From assembly GCA_964428655.1 (NCBI GenBank), contig CAYRYE010000001.1, positions 218,258 through 282,257 of the forward strand: a stretch of DNA of 64,000 nucleotides, read 5' to 3'. The translations under genes and the position numbers were made by a program. Each line of letters opens with the position of its first letter. The first letter of the stretch is position 1. The notes under the pieces were generated by a model. The model was not told where the DNA came from. It saw only the letters and a list, made by a program, of their open reading frames with translations, and ran no database searches. Below, one piece after another: positions 2,760 to 28,891 of this stretch. The DNA comes from an uncultured Gammaproteobacteria bacterium. GTDB taxonomy: Bacteria > Patescibacteriota > Microgenomatia > UBA12405 > JAHJSD01.

Positions 2760-4865
2760 ATGAATCAGCAGCGAATAGAAGTAACTAAAAATAGGGATGT
2801 TCCTATGGAGAAAATCAGGAACATTGGTGTTATTGCCCACATTGATGCTGGTAAGACAACTACCACTGAACGAATTTTGTTTTACACAGGCAGGACTTAT
2901 AAGATGGGCAATATTGACGATGGAACTACGGTTACTGATTGGATGGACCAAGAGAAGGAAAGAGGGATTACCATTGTTTCTGCGGCAGTGACTGCTTTTT
3001 GGAAGGAATATAGGTTCAATATCATCGATACTCCAGGCCATGTCGATTTTACTGCCGAAGTCGAAAGATCTTTGCGAGTTTTAGATGGAGCTATTATGGT
3101 TTTTGATGCTGAAGAAGGAGTTCAGGCTCAGTCGGAAACCGTTTGGCATCAAGCTGACAGGTATAAGGTGCCGAGATTGGTTTTTGCCAATAAAATGGAT
3201 AAATTAGGAGCAGATTTTGACAATACCATTGAAATGATTAAAAACAGGCTGGTGGCTAAGCCGGCAATTGTTGCTTATCCAGTAGGTAAGGAACAGGATT
3301 TTAAGGGAGTAATTTTGGTTTTGGAGAAAAAGATGTTGATTTGGGATAAAGGGGAAATGGGAACAGAATATTCAACAGTTAATGTTGCTGATGAGTATCA
3401 AGAGAAAATTGAAAAAATTAGAGCAAAGTTGATTGAAGATATCTGTGGCGAAGATGAGGGACTAATGGAGAAATTTTTGAATAACGAAGAACCAAGTTTG
3501 GAAGAGCTAAAGGCAGGGCTGAGGAAAGCAGTTATTGCCAATAAGTTGGTTCCCGTCTATTGCGGTAGCGCTCTCCGCAATAAAGGTGTTCAACCTCTTT
3601 TGGATGGAGTAATAGATTATCTTCCCTCTCCCTTGGATTTGCCTCCGGTTAAAGGTGTCAATCCTAAAACAGGAGAGGAAGAAAGAAGATCCCCTAAAAA
3701 AGAGGAGCCCTTTTCGGCCCTTCTGTTTAAGGTTCAAACTGATCCCCATGTGGGCAAGCTTTCCTATTTAAGAATTTATTCCGGTAAATTGAAAAGTGCT
3801 TCGACTGTTTATAATGCCTCTAAAAAAAGCTCTGAGAGGATAGGCAGACTATTATTAATGCATGCCAATAAAAGAGAAGGAATTGAGGAGGCATTCGCTG
3901 GAGAAATAGTTGCCGCTGTTGGTCTTAAAGAATCTGCAACTGGGGATACACTTTGTCAGCAGGGACAAACAATTAATTTTGAGTCGATAAGCTTTCCTGA
4001 TCCAGTTATCTCTTTGGCGATTGAACCGGAAACAAAATCAGATCAGGAAAAACTTAGTGCAGCTTTAAGTAAATTAGGCGAGGAAGACCCTACTTTTAAA
4101 ACCAAGATTGATCATGAGACGGGTCAGACAATTATCTCCGGGATGGGAGAACTTCATTTGGAAATTTTGGTTGAGAGAATGAAACGAGAGTTTAGCATTC
4201 ATGTTAATGTTGGCAAGCCCCAGATTGCTTATCGAGAGACTATTACTGAAGCAGAGTCTGGTGAGGGAAAATATATTCGACAAACTGGCGGTCGGGGTCA
4301 ATATGGCCATTGTTTTTTACGAATTGAGCCCCTAGAGAGGGGCGGCGGTTTTGAATTTGAATCTAAAATTAAAGGAGCAGCAATTCCGGCTAATTTTATT
4401 CCAGCAATAAAAAAGGGTGTTAGAGAGGCAATGGAGAAAGGTGTTGTTGCGGGTTATCCTTTGGTTGACATGAGGATAGTTGTTTATGATGGCAGCTATC
4501 ATGACGTTGACTCTTCTGATTTGGCTTTTAAGATTGCCGGCTCGATTGCCTTACAGGCGGCGGTTAAAAAAGCGGTTCCTGTCATTTTGGAACCAATTAT
4601 GAAGCTTGAGGTAAACGCACCTGAAGAATTTCTTGGTCAAGTTATTGGCGATCTTTCTTCAAGAAGGGCTCAGATCCTGGGTACGGAAGATAGGGGCCAA
4701 TTAAAGATAATTAGTTGCTTAATTCCTCTTGAGGCCGCTCGAGGCTATGCTACAATAATAAGGAGTCTAACTCAGGGTCGGGGCTCTTTCTACATGGAGC
4801 CTTCGCATTATCAAGGAGTGCCTAAAAATGTCCAGGAGGATATTATTGCAAAAAAGACAGCCTAA
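2760..4865 (+). CDS. fusA: Elongation factor G
   Basis: G-domain motifs AHIDAGKTT, DTPGHVDF, NKMD; 701 aa; follows rpsG. Confidence 0.95.
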   Translation: MNQQRIEVTKNRDVPMEKIRNIGVIAHIDAGKTTTTERILFYTGRTYKMGNIDDGTTVTDWMDQEKERGITIVSAAVTAFWKEYRFNIIDTPGHVDFTAEVERSLRVLDGAIMVFDAEEGVQAQSETVWHQADRYKVPRLVFANKMDKLGADFDNTIEMIKNRLVAKPAIVAYPVGKEQDFKGVILVLEKKMLIWDKGEMGTEYSTVNVADEYQEKIEKIRAKLIEDICGEDEGLMEKFLNNEEPSLEELKAGLRKAVIANKLVPVYCGSALRNKGVQPLLDGVIDYLPSPLDLPPVKGVNPKTGEEERRSPKKEEPFSALLFKVQTDPHVGKLSYLRIYSGKLKSASTVYNASKKSSERIGRLLLMHANKREGIEEAFAGEIVAAVGLKESATGDTLCQQGQTINFESISFPDPVISLAIEPETKSDQEKLSAALSKLGEEDPTFKTKIDHETGQTIISGMGELHLEILVERMKREFSIHVNVGKPQIAYRETITEAESGEGKYIRQTGGRGQYGHCFLRIEPLERGGGFEFESKIKGAAIPANFIPAIKKGVREAMEKGVVAGYPLVDMRIVVYDGSYHDVDSSDLAFKIAGSIALQAAVKKAVPVILEPIMKLEVNAPEEFLGQVIGDLSSRRAQILGTEDRGQLKIISCLIPLEAARGYATIIRSLTQGRGSFYMEPSHYQGVPKNVQEDIIAKKTA

Positions 4866-23295: not shown

Positions 23296-23335
23296 TACAC
23301 GCTCCGGGACCTGCTAGTTCGGCAGGCAGGTGTTC
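23296..23335. terminator. GC-rich hairpin between convergent iscU (+) and the MazG-like gene (-)
   Basis: CCTGC-TAGTTCG-GCAGG with extended flanking complementarity, seen in the sequence. Confidence 0.45.
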
Positions 23336-23342
23336 CGCATAA

Positions 23343-23657
23343 TTAGTCGTTTTCTGAGTCAGGAGATCCACCTTTATCTAAACGCTTGGAATATTTTTCT
23401 AAAACCTCTGCAAGTGCCTCTTCAAGATCAATATCAAGTAGATTGGCAGTAACGATTAGTGAAAAAAGAGAGTCTCCAAGTTCAGACCTGGTTTTTGCTC
23501 TGGGTTCAGGAGGCTTTTTACCATAGTCAGTCATTTTTAAAATCTCTTTAGCAACCTCACCAATTTCTGAAACTAAATCTAAGACTCTATGTTCCAATGG
23601 TGCGTTTAGATTATGCTTTTGACAAAAATCTCTAACCTGATATTGAAGCTGTTTCAT
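23343..23657 (-). CDS. MazG-like nucleotide pyrophosphohydrolase (small all-alpha NTP-PPase)
   Basis: About 100 aa; EIGEV...E..D...E-type motif as in MazG/YpjD family. Confidence 0.6.
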   Translation of the reverse strand: MKQLQYQVRDFCQKHNLNAPLEHRVLDLVSEIGEVAKEILKMTDYGKKPPEPRAKTRSELGDSLFSLIVTANLLDIDLEEALAEVLEKYSKRLDKGGSPDSEND

Positions 23658-23791
23658 CTTTGTAGAATTTTGAATTAATAAAATTTCATCTAACGTTTCG
23701 GACCATATGGGATCCTGATTACAATCTTATCAGGATTTGGGAAAATTTTCTTTTGAATTTTCCGTATAGCCCGTGTTAGGCGATATCTACT

Positions 23792-23998
23792 TTAAAGAGC
23801 TCTGGCCCTCTCTCTAAGATTTAGAGCGCCCCGATGCCATTCTACTAATCTTTTAACCCTCCCCCTTCTTATTTTTGGAGTTTGAAGAGACCACGGATGT
23901 TTTTTTACTACATCACGGGCCCAAATCATACCATTTGCTCCTTGTGCTAATATTCGTCTCGCTTCTGCAAAATCAAAATCACTCTCGCCTTTTGCCAT
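23792..23998 (-). CDS. Small basic hypothetical protein (68 aa)
   Basis: Strong SD (AAAGGAGGTGA, 8 nt upstream of the ATG) on the minus strand; no recognisable family. Confidence 0.5.
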   Translation of the reverse strand: MAKGESDFDFAEARRILAQGANGMIWARDVVKKHPWSLQTPKIRRGRVKRLVEWHRGALNLRERARAL

Positions 23999-24154
23999 TT
24001 TCAGGTCACCTCCTTTTTGTCACTCAAAGTTAAAAGTAAATTTCGTTTAACGTTTAGGTATATCTGAAGTTTAGCAAAAACCTTGAGTTTTATCAAAGAA
24101 ACCATGAAAAACAATTATTTCACTGATGACTAAACTTATATGTTATAATATAGG

Positions 24155-24595
24155 CTATGAGAATAATTGTGCTAGATAGCTGTCGAGGATTGGTTAGTGA
24201 AGTTACAGAAGGGCGGAAAAAAGGCCATGAATTGGGTCGACGTTTTGTTAGGAACCAGAGAGCAGTAGCTCAAAGCGGAGATCCGAAAATAAGGCGGGCG
24301 TGTGGTCCAGCCGCTCGAAGGGCGATCAGTGAAGGAATTTTAGGTGAACCCAATAGTAATGTAAGAGTAAGGGATTTTGTTGCTGACGCACTACTTCCGT
24401 CCGAAAGTCCGCTTAGCTTGTTAATACCCACAGGAAGAGAACTTCGGTCAAGGGTAAGAAGAGTGGGAAGAAACGTGGGGTTTGTGCAGGGAGTAAGTGA
24501 AGAGTTGGGTGGTTTAGGAAACATTGATCAATTGGTTCCGAGACCTAAACAAAGAGGAAGATAGCTTCATCAGTCTAAAGACAATTGTTTTTTTA
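24155..24595 (+). ncRNA. Candidate structured ncRNA (purine-rich, GC-enriched; contains GAAAGUCCG; identity unresolved: RNase P RNA or another housekeeping RNA?)
   Basis: Extended -10 TGTTATAAT at about 24139-24147. Downstream about 440 nt has GC content visibly above the surroundings. The only long ORF on either strand is Arg-rich and lacks an SD. The locus ends in a palindrome (ACAATTGT) plus U7. Confidence 0.35.
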
Positions 24596-24672
24596 ATTCT
24601 CCCTTCCCTATTTTTCAACCTTTTGGGTGAAAGGCAGAGGGGAATTAAAGGGGTGAATGCCTGAGTCCAAAA

Positions 24673-25095
24673 TTATTTTAGTAATCTTACTTTTTGAACT
24701 GTATTTTCAAAGTTTTTCATCAATTCGTGTTCCCAAATTCTAATAACTTTCCAAGTTTTCTTCTTGTAATATCTATTAACCTTTTTATCTCTTGTCTTAT
24801 TTCGTTCAATTTTGCCTGTCCAATATTTTTTATTTGTCGACGGCATTCTGCAATGTTTTTTACAACCGTGCCAAAAACAAGAATCAATAAAAATTACTGT
24901 TTTATATTTTTTCAAAACCAAATCAGGTTTTCCAAAATATTTTGTTGAATTTTTTCGATACCTAAGTCCAGCTTTCCAAATCGCTTTTCTAAAATCAACC
25001 TCAATCTTACTATCCCTACTCCTCACTTTTGACATTATTTCACTTCTTTGCTGCTTCGAAACTGTATCTGTCATCTCAGTCGTTAAAAAGCTCAA
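24673..25095 (-). CDS. vsr: Very-short-patch-repair endonuclease (Vsr, T:G mismatch-specific)
   Basis: IFIDSCFWHGC motif diagnostic of the Vsr family; overlaps the upstream gene by 20 nt. Confidence 0.88.
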   Translation of the reverse strand: MSFLTTEMTDTVSKQQRSEIMSKVRSRDSKIEVDFRKAIWKAGLRYRKNSTKYFGKPDLVLKKYKTVIFIDSCFWHGCKKHCRMPSTNKKYWTGKIERNKTRDKKVNRYYKKKTWKVIRIWEHELMKNFENTVQKVRLLK

Positions 25096-25837
25096 CAGGA
25101 TTTATTTTAAATTGAAGCATTTTTGAAGTATCTCGTCCCGCATCCCCTCCTTTCCTTTGCATTCCGATTCTCCCAATTTTTAAACTGCCTTGCGATGTTA
25201 TTTTAACATCGCCGTCTCCAAAAACATTCATGGCCTCGTTTATTGACTTCAGTATCCATCTACTACTGTCATTAATTTTTAGAATCACCAAAACCCAGTC
25301 GGCAGAAAATTCTCCCCTGCCCTTTAACAAATCGGAGACAATCAAAATTTTGTTATTTTCAAAAAATCTTACAACTTTATCTTGATCGTCTTTATTCATT
25401 TCTGTTAAAAACATTCTCCGCTTGTCTTTTAATCCCTTTTTGATCGGCTTTAGCTCCCCGGTAAAAAGCTTCAGGATTTTTGCGATATCTTCCGGGATGT
25501 TCCAAAGTTCAATATACTTATCAACCCATCTTTTGTCTATTTGGTTAAATCCTTGAGGATTGCTAACAAGTTTTACTTGCAGGTTTTGCAAGTCCTCTTG
25601 AGATTTTAACTTAATGATAATTTTAACTCTAACTTGAACATCAGCTTTGTACTGTCCGCGAACTTTTTCTGCTTTTACATATTCAATGTCTGAAATACTA
25701 TAACCCATAACTTCTAACCACTTTTGAGCCGTTTTGTCTTTTTTCCAATCGTTAAAACGATTAATTACGTTTTTTTCGTTTCTGAAACCGCCTTTTGCGA
25801 TTTGAGAACCTAATTTCGCTAACTGTTTTTTATTCAT
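25076..25837 (-). CDS. Probable Type II restriction endonuclease (cognate of the adjacent C5-MTase; size and layout resemble HhaI/HinP1I/MspI-type enzymes)
   Basis: Sits between the m5C-MTase and vsr with 4-nt and 20-nt junctions; no other recognisable family. The call rests on context. Confidence 0.45.
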   Translation of the reverse strand: MNKKQLAKLGSQIAKGGFRNEKNVINRFNDWKKDKTAQKWLEVMGYSISDIEYVKAEKVRGQYKADVQVRVKIIIKLKSQEDLQNLQVKLVSNPQGFNQIDKRWVDKYIELWNIPEDIAKILKLFTGELKPIKKGLKDKRRMFLTEMNKDDQDKVVRFFENNKILIVSDLLKGRGEFSADWVLVILKINDSSRWILKSINEAMNVFGDGDVKITSQGSLKIGRIGMQRKGGDAGRDTSKMLQFKINPVELFND

Positions 25838-25841
25838 AAAT

Positions 25842-26819
25842 TCAATTTAAGTAATTTAATAAACTTTGACCAAATGATTCAACGACATTTACGGTCATGG
25901 CGTTCCCCGCCTGACTTAACAAATCAGTGTCCGAAATTTTACCTTTGACTTTTTTTGACAACTTTTCGGGAAACCCTTGTAACAACAAAGATTCATATCC
26001 AGACAGTTTTCTAAATTTTCCGCCCCTCACATATAAAATACCATGCCTCCCTTTTCTAAGAGTTGGCACTTTGCCACGATATAGGCGCAAGTCAGATTGG
26101 CGAGTATCAATGACTAAAAATTGTTCTTTTAATAACTCATTGATTGAAAATTTACCTTTGTTGTATTTATTTTCCAAATATCTCAAAAAGGTTTGATAGG
26201 CTCTTTTCTTTTCATGAAACTCTAACTCATTAGTGTCAATCAAATATTCTTTTAATTCCGGTTTTTTAACTGATTGTGGAAAATTAAAAGCGTTACCGTT
26301 TCTTAAATCCTTCCGCACACCAATAAAATAAATTCTCTCCCTCATTTGCGGAACTCCATAGCACAAACTGCTTACTAGTTTCCAATAAACTTTATAACCA
26401 GCCTTTTCTAGCTCGCTTAAAATGTTTTTAAAAGACTGTCCATTGCCATGATTCAGTAAACCCTTTACATTTTCCAGAATGAAATATTTCAGATTTTTCG
26501 CTTTCATTATGTTTATCAACCCATAAATAATCTGACCTCGCGGATCGCACATTCCAGTTCTTTGTCCAATGACTGAGAAGGTTTGACATGGAAAGCCTGC
26601 AATCATCAAGTCAAAGCCCGGCAAGTCATCTGGAGTTATCTTCATCAAATCACCATAATTAGCTTCATTTTTTCCAAAAAATACCCTATATGTTTCTTCG
26701 GCTTTTCTATTAATTTCCGAAAAACCCACACATTTCATTCCACTATTTTCAAGACCAATTCTCCCCCCGCCAATACCAGCACAAAAATCTATAAATTTCA
26801 GTTTCTTGTTCAATGCCAT
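25842..26819 (-). CDS. DNA (cytosine-5)-methyltransferase
   Basis: Motif I FCAGIGG, IV GFPCQ, VI ENVKGL, VIII QMRERIY, X GNAM; an NHGNG stretch after motif VI resembles M.HhaI-like enzymes. Confidence 0.9.
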   Translation of the reverse strand: MALNKKLKFIDFCAGIGGGRIGLENSGMKCVGFSEINRKAEETYRVFFGKNEANYGDLMKITPDDLPGFDLMIAGFPCQTFSVIGQRTGMCDPRGQIIYGLINIMKAKNLKYFILENVKGLLNHGNGQSFKNILSELEKAGYKVYWKLVSSLCYGVPQMRERIYFIGVRKDLRNGNAFNFPQSVKKPELKEYLIDTNELEFHEKKRAYQTFLRYLENKYNKGKFSINELLKEQFLVIDTRQSDLRLYRGKVPTLRKGRHGILYVRGGKFRKLSGYESLLLQGFPEKLSKKVKGKISDTDLLSQAGNAMTVNVVESFGQSLLNYLN

Positions 26820-26890
26820 AATTTCATTTTACTAAAAATTTCTATTAATTCGTATTGCCTTTGTTTTTTTAAGACAAAACCAATAGAAAA

Positions 26891-27892
26891 CTAAGACTTA
26901 CTAGGTCTCTCCTTATTTTTTTTACGTGACCTTTCAACAAAGTGCTCAACTTTGTCTTTCCAACCAGAAATATGGGGGACTCTATTAAACTCCTTTCCAT
27001 GTCTACCAGACAAGAGCTCTGTTCTGGTGCACTTACTCAGCTCTTGCCAATTACTATACATAATATAAATAGCATTTCCGTATTCAACGTTTTCAAAAAC
27101 TACTAGATCTTTTTCTAAAAGTGCACCAAAGTAACGTTGTATTCCGCTCATTCCGTAAACAAGCTTTTTGGGCCTAAGTTTTTTAAAAAAGTCGTATCTT
27201 TCTCCAGCAGTCTTTTTCTTTTCCTCTGGAACGGGCGATTTATATCCGGCAAAAATTCTATCCACAACTTCTTCTCGGGTCCCTGGTGGAAGAATTATCC
27301 AATCAACCTTTGTTGTTTGTAAGTAATCATTGAATGAGGCATTTGCTTTTTGAACCCCGCACATGCCAATATTTTCCTGAAGGATATTTAAACACTTTAA
27401 CAGATCTCTTTCAAAATTTGGATCTTTTCTGTCAAGCACGCTATCTAGCTCAAATGTAAGCACATACTGCTTTTTATTCTTACCTTTTTCCTTGGTATTA
27501 ATTTTGACACAAATATGTTCTGGTCCATAAAAATCTCGTGGATATTTCCTGTATGGAAGGTCGACACGATGGGACCCATTGTACCAATCTCCATAATTAG
27601 GACATTCAACCGAATTATAATGAGTTTCCTTGGGGAGGTCTTTACGAATAACTGCATATCCATCGATATTTCTCCTGCTGTATTTTCCACTAGTCACTGG
27701 AGGAACCGCAGGATCTTCAGGAACAATGAGCTCCTCGTTGCTTAAATGAATGCCAAGATGTTTAAGTTCTCCTTGTAGTAACTGTTGAGAAGAAACAATT
27801 TTAAGACATGCTGCTACAATATAACGTTCATTGAGTCTTTTTAATTGCACGTGTACAAGTTTTGGAATCTTCCGAATATTTTTTTTAGCCAT
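26891..27892 (-). CDS. Hypothetical protein (333 aa), translationally coupled to lexA
   Basis: Start overlaps the lexA stop by 8 nt; no recognisable motif. Confidence 0.6.
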   Translation of the reverse strand: MAKKNIRKIPKLVHVQLKRLNERYIVAACLKIVSSQQLLQGELKHLGIHLSNEELIVPEDPAVPPVTSGKYSRRNIDGYAVIRKDLPKETHYNSVECPNYGDWYNGSHRVDLPYRKYPRDFYGPEHICVKINTKEKGKNKKQYVLTFELDSVLDRKDPNFERDLLKCLNILQENIGMCGVQKANASFNDYLQTTKVDWIILPPGTREEVVDRIFAGYKSPVPEEKKKTAGERYDFFKKLRPKKLVYGMSGIQRYFGALLEKDLVVFENVEYGNAIYIMYSNWQELSKCTRTELLSGRHGKEFNRVPHISGWKDKVEHFVERSRKKNKERPSKS

Positions 27893-28523
27893 GCTGGTTT
27901 TGATAATTAATAGGTATTACGCTAACAACAACACCCTGAACTTTAAAGTCATTTGTTAAAATAATTGGTTTATTTTTTGGGTTGGATGACTTTGGCTTCA
28001 ATACAATTGCATTCCCGACGTGATTATATTCCTTAATAGTGGTCTCATCGTCTATTAGAGCAACCACTCGATCTTTATTTTTGGCCGTTGATTGCTGACG
28101 AATCAATACCAAATTACCATCGTTAATGCCAGCCAAATCCATAGAATCTCCGGATGCACGGAGAATAAAGTATTTCGACCCGGATTTAAGCATAGACGTA
28201 GTGACTGGAATATTACCTTCTATGTTTTCTTCTGATAGTAAAGGCATACCGCACGCGACCATTCCAACAAGCGGAATGTCTTGGGTTTGAGCATGAGTTA
28301 AATTTGACTGAGGATCTTTTATCAATTGATATTTTCCGGATTTTATCTTTTTTAACACATTCTTTTTTTCAAGTTTTTCTAATATATCTTGAGCTGATCT
28401 AGGAGATTTATAGCCAAGAGCCTTCATAAGCTGACGCACTGATGGACTCGATCCATTATGCACCAAAGAATTTCTAATATGCCTTATTGCTTGAAACTCT
28501 TTTTTGCTTAGTTGTTTTTCCAT
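27885..28523 (-). CDS. lexA: LexA repressor (wHTH plus S24 peptidase)
   Basis: N-terminal LexA wHTH (LGYKSPRSAQDILEKLEKKNVL); C-terminal GDSM catalytic Ser and downstream Lys. Confidence 0.88.
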   Translation of the reverse strand: MEKQLSKKEFQAIRHIRNSLVHNGSSPSVRQLMKALGYKSPRSAQDILEKLEKKNVLKKIKSGKYQLIKDPQSNLTHAQTQDIPLVGMVACGMPLLSEENIEGNIPVTTSMLKSGSKYFILRASGDSMDLAGINDGNLVLIRQQSTAKNKDRVVALIDDETTIKEYNHVGNAIVLKPKSSNPKNKPIILTNDFKVQGVVVSVIPINYQNQHG

Positions 28524-28532
28524 ACTGTTTGT

Positions 28533-28561
28533 ATGTTACCGTATGTTTTAATCCTTGTCAA
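28533..28561 (-). promoter_or_regulatory. sigma70-like promoter for lexA (-35 TTGACA, 17-nt spacer, -10 TAACAT), overlapped by a GTATGTT-N3-GTATGTT direct repeat
   Basis: Read from the minus strand: TTGACAaggattaaaacatacggTAACATacaaacagtATG. Confidence 0.5.
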
Positions 28562-28746
28562 GAGTCCAAGTCGAATACTAAAAAAGCCATAAAACATCCC
28601 GCCAATGTAGTTGGCGGGATTCCTTAATTCCCCTCTAAAATAAAAACAAACTTATCTTTCCCCATACTCAACCTTCTTGGGGTTGAAAAATATTTTTTGA
28701 ATTGCGTATAACTAGTGCTTATGTGAATTGTTTTCGTAATTTCGTT

Positions 28747-28823
28747 TGGTCGGGGATGCCGGACTCGAACCGGCGGCCTCGCGCACCCCATGCGCGCGCG
28801 CTAACCAACTGCGCCAATCCCCG
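28747..28823 (-). tRNA. tRNA-Pro (anticodon GGG)
   Basis: 77-nt cloverleaf folded by hand: C1-G72 acceptor stem, GCGC D-stem, loop AUGGGGU (G37), TTCGAGT T-loop, encoded CCA. Confidence 0.85.
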
Positions 28824-28838
28824 TTTCATTGGTTGTAT

Positions 28839-28857
28839 TTTAACATGAATTGTGTTA
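28839..28857 (+). promoter_or_regulatory. Inverted repeat TTAACA-N7-TGTTAA upstream of recA (candidate SOS operator)
   Basis: Perfect 6-bp inverted repeat about 35 nt upstream of the recA ATG. Confidence 0.35.
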
Positions 28858-28891
28858 AAAAAAGTAATATCATTGATTCGTTGAAAGGGGT

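Follow-up and report, generated by a model that had tools for sequence, protein, structure and literature searches.

The five co-directional genes that run from lexA to vsr on the minus strand of contig CAYRYE010000001.1 are, judging by their homology to other loci, two separately mobile units side by side and not one evolutionary unit. The window analysed here is the whole 64-kb stretch (positions 218,258 to 282,257 of the contig), and all positions below follow its own numbering. In the direction of transcription, the block encodes a 212-aa LexA-family repressor with a winged helix-turn-helix (wHTH) and an S24 peptidase domain (lexA, 27885-28523), a 333-aa protein whose orphan family we call FAM (26891-27892), a C5-methyltransferase of the M.HinP1I/HhaI type (MTase, 25842-26819), a type II restriction endonuclease of the R.HinP1I family (REase, 25076-25837) and a Vsr endonuclease (vsr, 24673-25074). 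We estimate at roughly 60% the probability that two independently mobile cassettes have come together here, in a Patescibacteria-like genome, as a small composite defence islet.

Comparison of the block by blastn with all fetched loci sets the limits of each unit. The first (26891-28563) holds the promoter and operator, lexA and the 333-aa gene; the second (24671-26840) is an M.HinP1I-R.HinP1I-Vsr cassette, common in the Candidate Phyla Radiation (CPR). About 80 CPR loci match the second unit at 70-77% nucleotide identity strictly over 24671-26840, from the vsr stop codon to some 20 nt before the MTase ATG, and the homology never extends into the 333-aa gene or lexA. The closest relative of the first unit, L078, is 68% identical over 26926-28563, a stretch that opens within the 333-aa gene, in its 3′ part, and closes at the lexA -35 box. 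Both are also found apart: L080 carries the cassette without LexA, as C-protein(HTH_3)-M-R-Vsr with a REase 85% identical to that of the window, while LexA followed by FAM, with or without a DUF2188 gene, recurs in Thermodesulfobacteriota (L004) and in L016, L023, L077, L078 and L079. These LexA-FAM relatives adjoin serine recombinases and restriction-modification (R-M) genes. The first-pass annotation of the window had taken the five genes for a single run whose order might recur in related genomes; what recurs is each unit, in separate homology blocks and not as one run.

The open reading frame (ORF) listing places all five genes where they had been described. The 8-nt overlap of lexA and the 333-aa ORF, ATGGCTAA, couples the two translationally, and the MTase and REase are separated by 4 nt, both as first reported. 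A 20-nt overlap between REase and vsr, by contrast, exists only if vsr begins at TTG 25095, the start of the longest ORF. The in-frame ATG at 25074, 1 nt past the REase stop, is the likely start, because in relatives the REase-vsr spacing is 1-4 nt and Vsr has 133-137 aa. A gap of 71 nt (26820-26890), not stressed in the earlier description, parts the 333-aa ORF from the MTase.

The second cassette is an ordinary HinP1I-type M-R-Vsr unit with presumed GCGC specificity. Its C5-MTase has all motifs and matches PF00145 at 4e-70; the neighbouring REase matches PF11463 (R.HinP1I) over its full length at 3.5e-89, and PADLOC returns a REase_II/MTase_II match at 1e-103. Adjoining them, the last gene of the run codes for a Vsr endonuclease domain, as had been recognised (PF03852 at 4e-29; TIGR00632 at 131 bits, cut-off 98). 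Vsr enzymes repair the T:G mismatches that result from deamination of 5-methylcytosine, as in Vsr/Dcm systems. The REase has 5749 homologues, the top 120 being 78-85% identical and mostly from Patescibacteria. There is no depletion of GCGC in the window, with 80 sites observed and 92 expected (observed/expected 0.87). The most under-represented 4-bp palindrome in the window is GTAC (32 observed, 68 expected); TGCA and GGCC are low as well.

The spacer between the units (26820-26890) contains no terminator, LexA operator or C gene: its 71 nt include neither an ORF for a controller (C) protein nor a significant C-gene remnant. The lexA operator motifs are absent from this place upstream of the MTase, where the first-pass annotation proposed to look, and in the 64 kb occur solely at lexA. 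A -10-like TAAAAT (26831-26826) stands 6 nt before the MTase ATG and mirrors the leaderless geometry found at lexA. Separately, positions 26820-26846 agree at 22 of 27 sites with L092:399-425, the 3′ end of an S24 gene abutting an MTase; with an alignment score that barely exceeds the 95th percentile of shuffles, this hints only marginally at an S24 gene that may once have stood directly upstream of the MTase in this cassette.

What precedes the MTase in related cassettes was surveyed in the best 80 of 546 metagenomic loci with close REase relatives (68-84% identical), near-duplicates included. Fifty-two of these reach 430 nt or more beyond the MTase on its upstream side and were informative in six-frame searches of that stretch with hidden Markov models (HMMs). 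The gene found there codes for a C-protein in 19/52 loci; C genes of close relatives encode 64-81-aa HTH_3 proteins and lie 3-5 nt upstream of M. An S24/LexA-like gene is present instead in 8/52, co-directional in six (L081, L092, L112, L114, L121, L130) and divergent in two (L107, L116), and 25/52 have neither. C-protein and S24 genes never occur together among the 52. In L092, S24 gene and MTase meet in a 4-nt stop-start junction like those between C and M, and in L107 and L116 a divergent intergenic region of 54-113 nt separates lexA from the MTase. A CPR contig (L128:2132-8259) carries, in one direction, a lexA-like gene, a Dam-type MTase, a C5-MTase, an R.HinP1I-like REase and Vsr; on the same contig, a second S24 repressor followed by a 414-aa orphan is found 1.4 kb further on.

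Two of the S24 lineages concerned have a strong LexA wHTH and the others a different N-terminus; one of them, clade C, precedes both the R-M cassette and FAM. The S24 adjacency amounts to about 15% of informative loci; were genes placed at random among some 1000 in a genome, less than 1% would be expected, a figure that is an estimate and not a computed expectation. On this ground the association is not ascribed to chance. Instead of through regulatory coupling, it may have arisen by co-residence in defence islands. The earlier suggestion that a LexA-like repressor occupies the place of an R-M controller thus finds comparative support in 8/52 relatives, whereas in the window an unrelated gene and 71 nt intervene. 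The transcriptional continuity suggested at the same time fares likewise: there is no terminator-like site from lexA to vsr, but a -10-like element belonging to the MTase itself stands before it at a leaderless spacing.

The run does begin with a real member of the LexA family. The protein scores 153 bits with the equivalog model TIGR00498 (cut-off 111), matches PF01726 at 6e-10 and PF00717 at 5e-27, and keeps the catalytic Ser (GDSM) and Lys (TIKE) in the LexA alignment. Its predicted self-cleavage site is Cys-Gly (VACG), as in UmuD, rather than Ala-Gly, and its PHROG matches are confined to generic repressor or UmuD families.

The lexA promoter and putative operator occupy 28521-28561 of the minus strand. 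The -35 box TTGACA (28561-28556) and the -10 box TAACAT (28538-28533) are followed so closely by the gene that the mRNA would be essentially leaderless, as the -10 ends 9 nt before the ATG. A palindrome, CATAC-N5-GTATG (28535-28521), reaches into the lexA ATG. The motifs first pointed out are real and occur once each in the window: AACATAC-N3-AACATAC at 28531-28547 and TTAACA-N7-TGTTAA at 28840-28858. The latter, an exact palindrome between tRNA-Pro and recA, is a candidate recA operator. Within the 64-kb window, neither CATAC-N5-GTATG nor AACATAC-N3-AACATAC precedes recA, and the lexA operator is not shared by recA and repair genes as that of a global SOS repressor would be. The difference between the recA palindrome and the lexA operator suggests that a regulator other than this LexA may control recA.

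By pairwise score, the S24 proteins encountered here fall into clades. The window LexA groups, at 180-300 bits, with those LexA genes of other phyla that stand before FAM (clade A), and scores 40-100 bits with the LexA-like genes beside other R-M cassettes, which belong to other clades. Clade A has at least 1685 members at E ≤ 1e-30, 60-84% identical and annotated from Omnitrophota, Nitrospirota and Patescibacteria; such identity between phyla is too close for vertical descent. Their promoters are alike, with TTGACA, then CATACAGTAACATAC (or ATACACTATAATAC), a gap of 4-5 nt, and GTAT(G) running into the ATG. The layout TTGACA...CATACAGTAACATAC-N4/5-GTATG-ATG is found upstream of clade-A LexA in L078, L162, L164, L004, L163 and L169, and 8 of the 11 loci of clade A have the palindrome ATAC-N4/5-GTAT no more than about 30 nt from the start. 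In these 8, the promoter and putative operator are conserved immediately before the ATG.

The genomic contexts of clade A were sampled from the LexA side in 4 long contigs and from the FAM side in about 9 loci. All 4 further clade-A genes (4/4) lie in defence or mobile contexts and head differing cargo in tight operons. In L162, LexA is followed by a 165-aa Ada-Zn-domain protein and adjoins Vsr, a C5-MTase and SIR2; in L163, by a Schlafen/AlbA_2 (SLFN) protein, an HNH protein and two MTases; in L164, by a 67-aa protein and a ThsB-type TIR protein, next to a serine recombinase and an R-M pair; and in L169, by DUF2188 and a 425-aa orphan, next to a Bil-like ubiquitin system, AbiEii and ArdC. No clade-A LexA was matched in viral contigs and plasmids, and the 64-kb window has no second S24 gene. 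Clade A is in this respect a conserved regulator set before varied defence cargo: FAM, TIR, SLFN with HNH, and others. As the same promoter-operator-LexA unit stands in several phyla before different defence cargo, it resembles a damage-responsive switch that is portable, and not just the SOS repressor of the host. The label of SOS repressor first given to this gene is accordingly doubtful, the clade being horizontally mobile.

A protein of 70-80 aa with a DUF2188 domain and a WTxEE...L, Myb/SANT-like pattern was seen in L004, L013, L015, L016, L077, L079 and L169. It accompanies LexA-like repressors whatever their cargo and looks like part of the regulator module; the window does not have it.

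The 333-aa protein has no match in Pfam, NCBIfam, PHROGs or PADLOC-DB 2.0 (0 families at E ≤ 0.1), and none by fold or sequence in PDB or BFVD. FAM counts at least 407 homologues by word-indexed search, and an exhaustive HMM search gives 1657 clusters at 50% identity, each of about 320 aa; no domain fusion occurs among the best 150 representatives. Sixty columns are invariant in 33 sequences from many phyla, and the AlphaFold2 (AF2) model has a mean confidence (pLDDT) of 84.6.

With one genome per species in GTDB, FAM was located in 69 loci scattered over more than 15 phyla. Its upstream same-strand partner is a LexA-like S24 repressor, with or without the 70-80-aa DUF2188 protein, in about 9 loci, and an XRE + ImmA/M78 pair resembling CapH/CapP in 4; UvrD/GajB-like helicases and various other proteins are also found there. 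An orphan of 227-258 aa lies directly upstream of FAM in 14 of some 66 species, the two genes making up a tight operon (L030, L035, L037, L039, L040, L044, L046, L051, L053, L054, L057, L059, L060, L062). This orphan has a conserved RNxLTHR motif (Rx4H, HEPN-like) and one weak match to HEPN_Cthe2314 (E = 0.036), and may constitute with FAM a two-component system. Very large proteins (1105-1580 aa) precede FAM in L014 and L036, as they do on the small plasmid 5 of Lactococcus cremoris SK11 (L170, NC_008507.1: 4299-9910), where the gene for a 1560-aa DEAD/DEAH helicase is followed after 18 nt by that for a distant 303-aa homologue.

On either side, the neighbours of FAM in the 69 species include GajB-like helicases, DndB, a CBASS cyclase, dGTPase, type I and type III R-M genes, Bil-type E1/E2, regulators resembling RmrA, ImmA or CapP, recombinases or transposases, and several PADLOC candidates, among which PDC-S16 is matched by 4 upstream neighbours. 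In viruses the family is nearly absent (4 IMG/VR contigs and 1 GenBank phage fragment); distant members sit on 16 plasmids. These neighbours and the near-absence from viruses make FAM a defence-island gene by context, and the 333-aa protein is most likely a component of defence or abortive infection.

The block is flanked as first described, by iscS, iscU and a MazG-like gene on one side and by tRNA-Pro and recA on the other. The MazG-like pyrophosphohydrolase has 104 aa (23343-23657), and tRNA-Pro(GGG) lies at 28747-28823 (-). An Rfam scan of 20-32 kb at E ≤ 1 returned this tRNA as its single match. Signs of an acquired island had also been proposed. The AT-richness is present, though only modest (GC 0.34-0.35 at 25-27 kb, about 0.385 overall), and no tRNA-derived att repeat accompanies it: around the block, a search for tRNA-derived or long terminal repeats turned up only short repeats at chance level. 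No integrase ORF is found among those of the window, and the block does not have the marks of a tRNA-integrated genomic island. After tRNA-Pro comes a terminator-like hairpin (28596-28620), the only one on this strand, which would insulate lexA from upstream transcription. No terminator-like site lies between lexA and vsr, so that read-through from one to the other is possible.

The outer end of the block is marked by a conserved hairpin on the plus strand (24621-24673), immediately 3′ of vsr and opposite to it. The element, undescribed and without Rfam match, has an outer stem and, inside it, a stem of 5 bp that is 100% paired thanks to compensatory changes; its 21-nt loop, GAGGGGAAYTAAAGGGGTGAA, is invariant. 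A covariance model finds 20 copies, in CPR loci only, each antisense to and just 3′ of accessory genes. They include L077:2893-2945, L078:3333-3385 and 4268-4320, L094:5770-5822, L096:3522-3574 and 3587-3635, L101:8394-8446, and copies in L108, L112 (two), L114 and L134; in L078 a full element directly follows FAM. A 15-nt partial copy of the loop, AGAGGGGAATTAAGG, lies inverted at 28622-28636 (-), just upstream of the lexA promoter, so that full and partial copies bracket the lexA-vsr block; a 13-nt inverted repeat by itself is near chance expectation. The element could be a cassette boundary, a 3′-end RNA element or a protein-binding site. A small ORF was considered and rejected, as no consistent frame or start codon exists across the copies.

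Two further features of the region lie beyond vsr. Positions 24157-24600 are G-rich on the plus strand (48% GC, about 38% in the genome) and include a 135-aa Arg/Gly-rich ORF called as a gene by JGI. This stretch shows no significant RNA fold (z = -1.2 and 0.07), no Pfam or Rfam match and no homologue in any of the fetched loci. Between it and the MazG-like gene, as part of the same minus-strand block, a 68-aa ORF (23792-23998, minus strand) has a strong Shine-Dalgarno sequence, AAGGAGGTGA, and no family match.

We propose that the first cassette is expressed from its sigma70-type, essentially leaderless promoter, the ATAC/GTAT repeats over the -10 box and start codon acting as operator. The LexA-family repressor would bind this operator and hold lexA and the 333-aa gene at a low level. 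By analogy with LexA, CI and UmuD, filaments of RecA on single-stranded DNA (ssDNA), formed after DNA damage or during the processing of phage DNA, would provoke self-cleavage of the repressor and a burst of its cargo, including the 333-aa protein. The second cassette would have landed, or been retained, directly downstream, without the usual C-protein gene. A basal expression of M, R and Vsr may come from the -10-like element in the 71-nt spacer, to which damage-induced read-through from the LexA promoter may add, as nothing terminator-like lies between lexA and the MTase. That restriction is coupled to LexA here is plausible.

Other accounts of the block have to be set beside this composite islet. 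If a LexA-like repressor took over the role of the C-protein, the R-M genes would be functionally under DNA-damage control and restriction would be boosted when activated RecA (RecA*) appears, as when phage DNA has been cut. The mutually exclusive presence of S24/LexA-like genes (8/52) and C-proteins (19/52) before the MTase speaks for such a takeover, as do the C-M style of the L092 junction, the divergent regions of L107 and L116, the lexA-Dam-M-R-V order of L128, the involvement of about 4 S24 lineages, and a window with neither C gene nor terminator. Yet in the window lexA and the MTase have an unrelated gene and 71 nt between them, and the spacer lacks the LexA operator and has its own -10-like site; the 25/52 cassettes with neither regulator indicate that a dedicated controller is not obligatory, and co-location in defence islands could explain the adjacency. 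We find a full takeover rather unlikely. We are also inclined to doubt a coincidental juxtaposition, in which accessory cassettes with their own promoters pile up in a variable hotspot by tRNA-Pro without any regulatory link. It agrees with the sharp, independent homology boundaries of two modules found apart elsewhere, with the -10-like element of the MTase and with the general clustering of defence genes; it agrees poorly with an S24 adjacency of about 15% against an estimated <1%, recurring in several arrangements and S24 lineages, and with co-directional genes that no terminator separates.

An unlikely account sees a genuine housekeeping LexA, with the 333-aa protein as a new SOS-regulated factor of repair or damage tolerance, behind whose operon the R-M cassette was merely inserted. 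The gene passes the equivalog model, adjoins recA and is the only S24 gene in 64 kb; FAM sometimes adjoins UvrD-like helicases and has its 60 invariant columns. Protein identity of 60-69% and the same promoter and operator in other phyla point instead to horizontal transfer of the whole unit; besides, the operator is absent at recA, which has a different palindrome, and relatives occur in defence or mobile contexts with varied cargo. That the block is what is left of a prophage or integrative element, its LexA a CI-like lysogeny repressor and the rest moron genes, is very improbable. The position immediately 3′ of a tRNA gene would suit such an origin, S24 repressors are typical of prophages and of integrative and conjugative elements (ICEs), and some CPR LexA-FAM loci lie near ParB-MTase fusions and small HTH genes, or recombinases. 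Against it, no integrase, att repeat, or phage structural or replication gene is found here, viral collections have next to no FAM or clade-A LexA, and the PHROG matches of LexA are restricted to generic repressor or UmuD families.

Several points also weigh against the composite islet as we picture it. The spacer promoter is only a -10-like hexamer. The lexA gene lies one tRNA from recA, and since the window has no other S24 gene it may be the organism's only LexA. Few clade-A contexts were sampled, 4 starting from LexA and about 9 starting from FAM, and once near-duplicates are removed the 8 S24 cases of the survey collapse to about 5 arrangements and about 4 S24 lineages. Finally, FAM has no recognisable fold or motif, and its role in defence is read from its neighbours alone.

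Among known systems, the second cassette is closest to type II R-M of the HinP1I/HhaI type (GCGC) with Vsr, and to C-protein-controlled systems in the order C-M-R, such as PvuII, Esp1396I and AhdI: the PF00145 MTase, PF11463 REase, Vsr and tight junctions are alike. The window copy differs from these by having no C gene and, upstream, a LexA-family repressor with an extra gene instead; in 8/52 relatives the S24 repressor takes the C position directly. With the LexA/SOS regulon (lexA-imuA-imuB-dnaE2, lexA-dinB), the first cassette shares wHTH and S24 domains, catalytic Ser and Lys, a predicted autoregulated promoter and a downstream gene predicted to be co-transcribed. It departs from that regulon in a cargo that is not a known SOS gene, in an operator (ATAC-N4/5-GTAT with a CATAC direct repeat) not present at recA, in the travelling together of gene, promoter and operator between phyla, and in the UmuD-like Cys-Gly cleavage site. 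Known LexA-headed operons contain imuA-imuB-dnaE2, dinB or SRAP (PMC3765255), and FAM is none of these.

The regulators of immune operons, CapH/CapP, BrxR/CapW and CapK/CapS, likewise head variable cargo in defence islands as conserved genes and are likened here by a predicted de-repression upon DNA damage. Theirs relies on a metallopeptidase, on WYL-ssDNA binding or on a kinase, whereas LexA would act as a single protein through RecA*-stimulated S24 self-cleavage. With CapH/CapP and BrxR/CapW the analogy is functional only: the protein families differ, and LexA is not a member. The S24 repressors of prophages and ICEs (lambda CI, SetR) and PrtR-type pyocin control offer another parallel, in that an S24 protein would keep a potentially harmful locus silent until RecA* appears; the window, in contrast, has no genes for element replication, excision or lysis, and its repressor has the N-terminal wHTH of LexA, not an XRE HTH. 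In the literature, our coverage of which is incomplete, we found no description of LexA-family regulators of immune operons or of LexA-controlled R-M systems; a review of R-M regulation mentions LexA only for toxin-antitoxin genes (PMC3874152).

That LexA-like repressors recur beside this cassette and other defence genes far above chance points to an undescribed wiring of immunity to DNA damage. More tentatively, all of this might be joined into one picture, which we think possible though less than even odds. LexA-family proteins (wHTH and S24) would form a further, undescribed class of portable damage switches for immune operons, next to CapH/CapP, CapW/BrxR and CapK/CapS; one clade of them moves between phyla with its leaderless promoter and ATAC/GTAT operator and stands before interchangeable cargo. 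S24 repressors would replace C-proteins in CPR and make restriction damage-inducible. FAM, with its new fold and at least 1657 clusters, would represent a widespread defence component of a new kind, able to pair with HEPN-like proteins or large helicases.

CPR bacteria rely heavily on restriction-modification. If the coupling to LexA is real, restriction in these organisms would be run by a self-cleaving damage sensor and not by a C-protein, which changes the view of R-M regulation there, and immunity would be boosted exactly while foreign DNA is being processed. As for FAM, a large and strongly conserved family of defence islands in more than 15 phyla, it is a concrete candidate for a new defence activity, made testable by the fact that cultured bacteria carry homologues on plasmids (plasmid 5 of Lactococcus cremoris SK11, Segatella copri, Sinorhizobium). 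With the coupling confirmed, LexA, the textbook SOS repressor, would be one more of the few mobile regulators known to tie immune operons to DNA damage.

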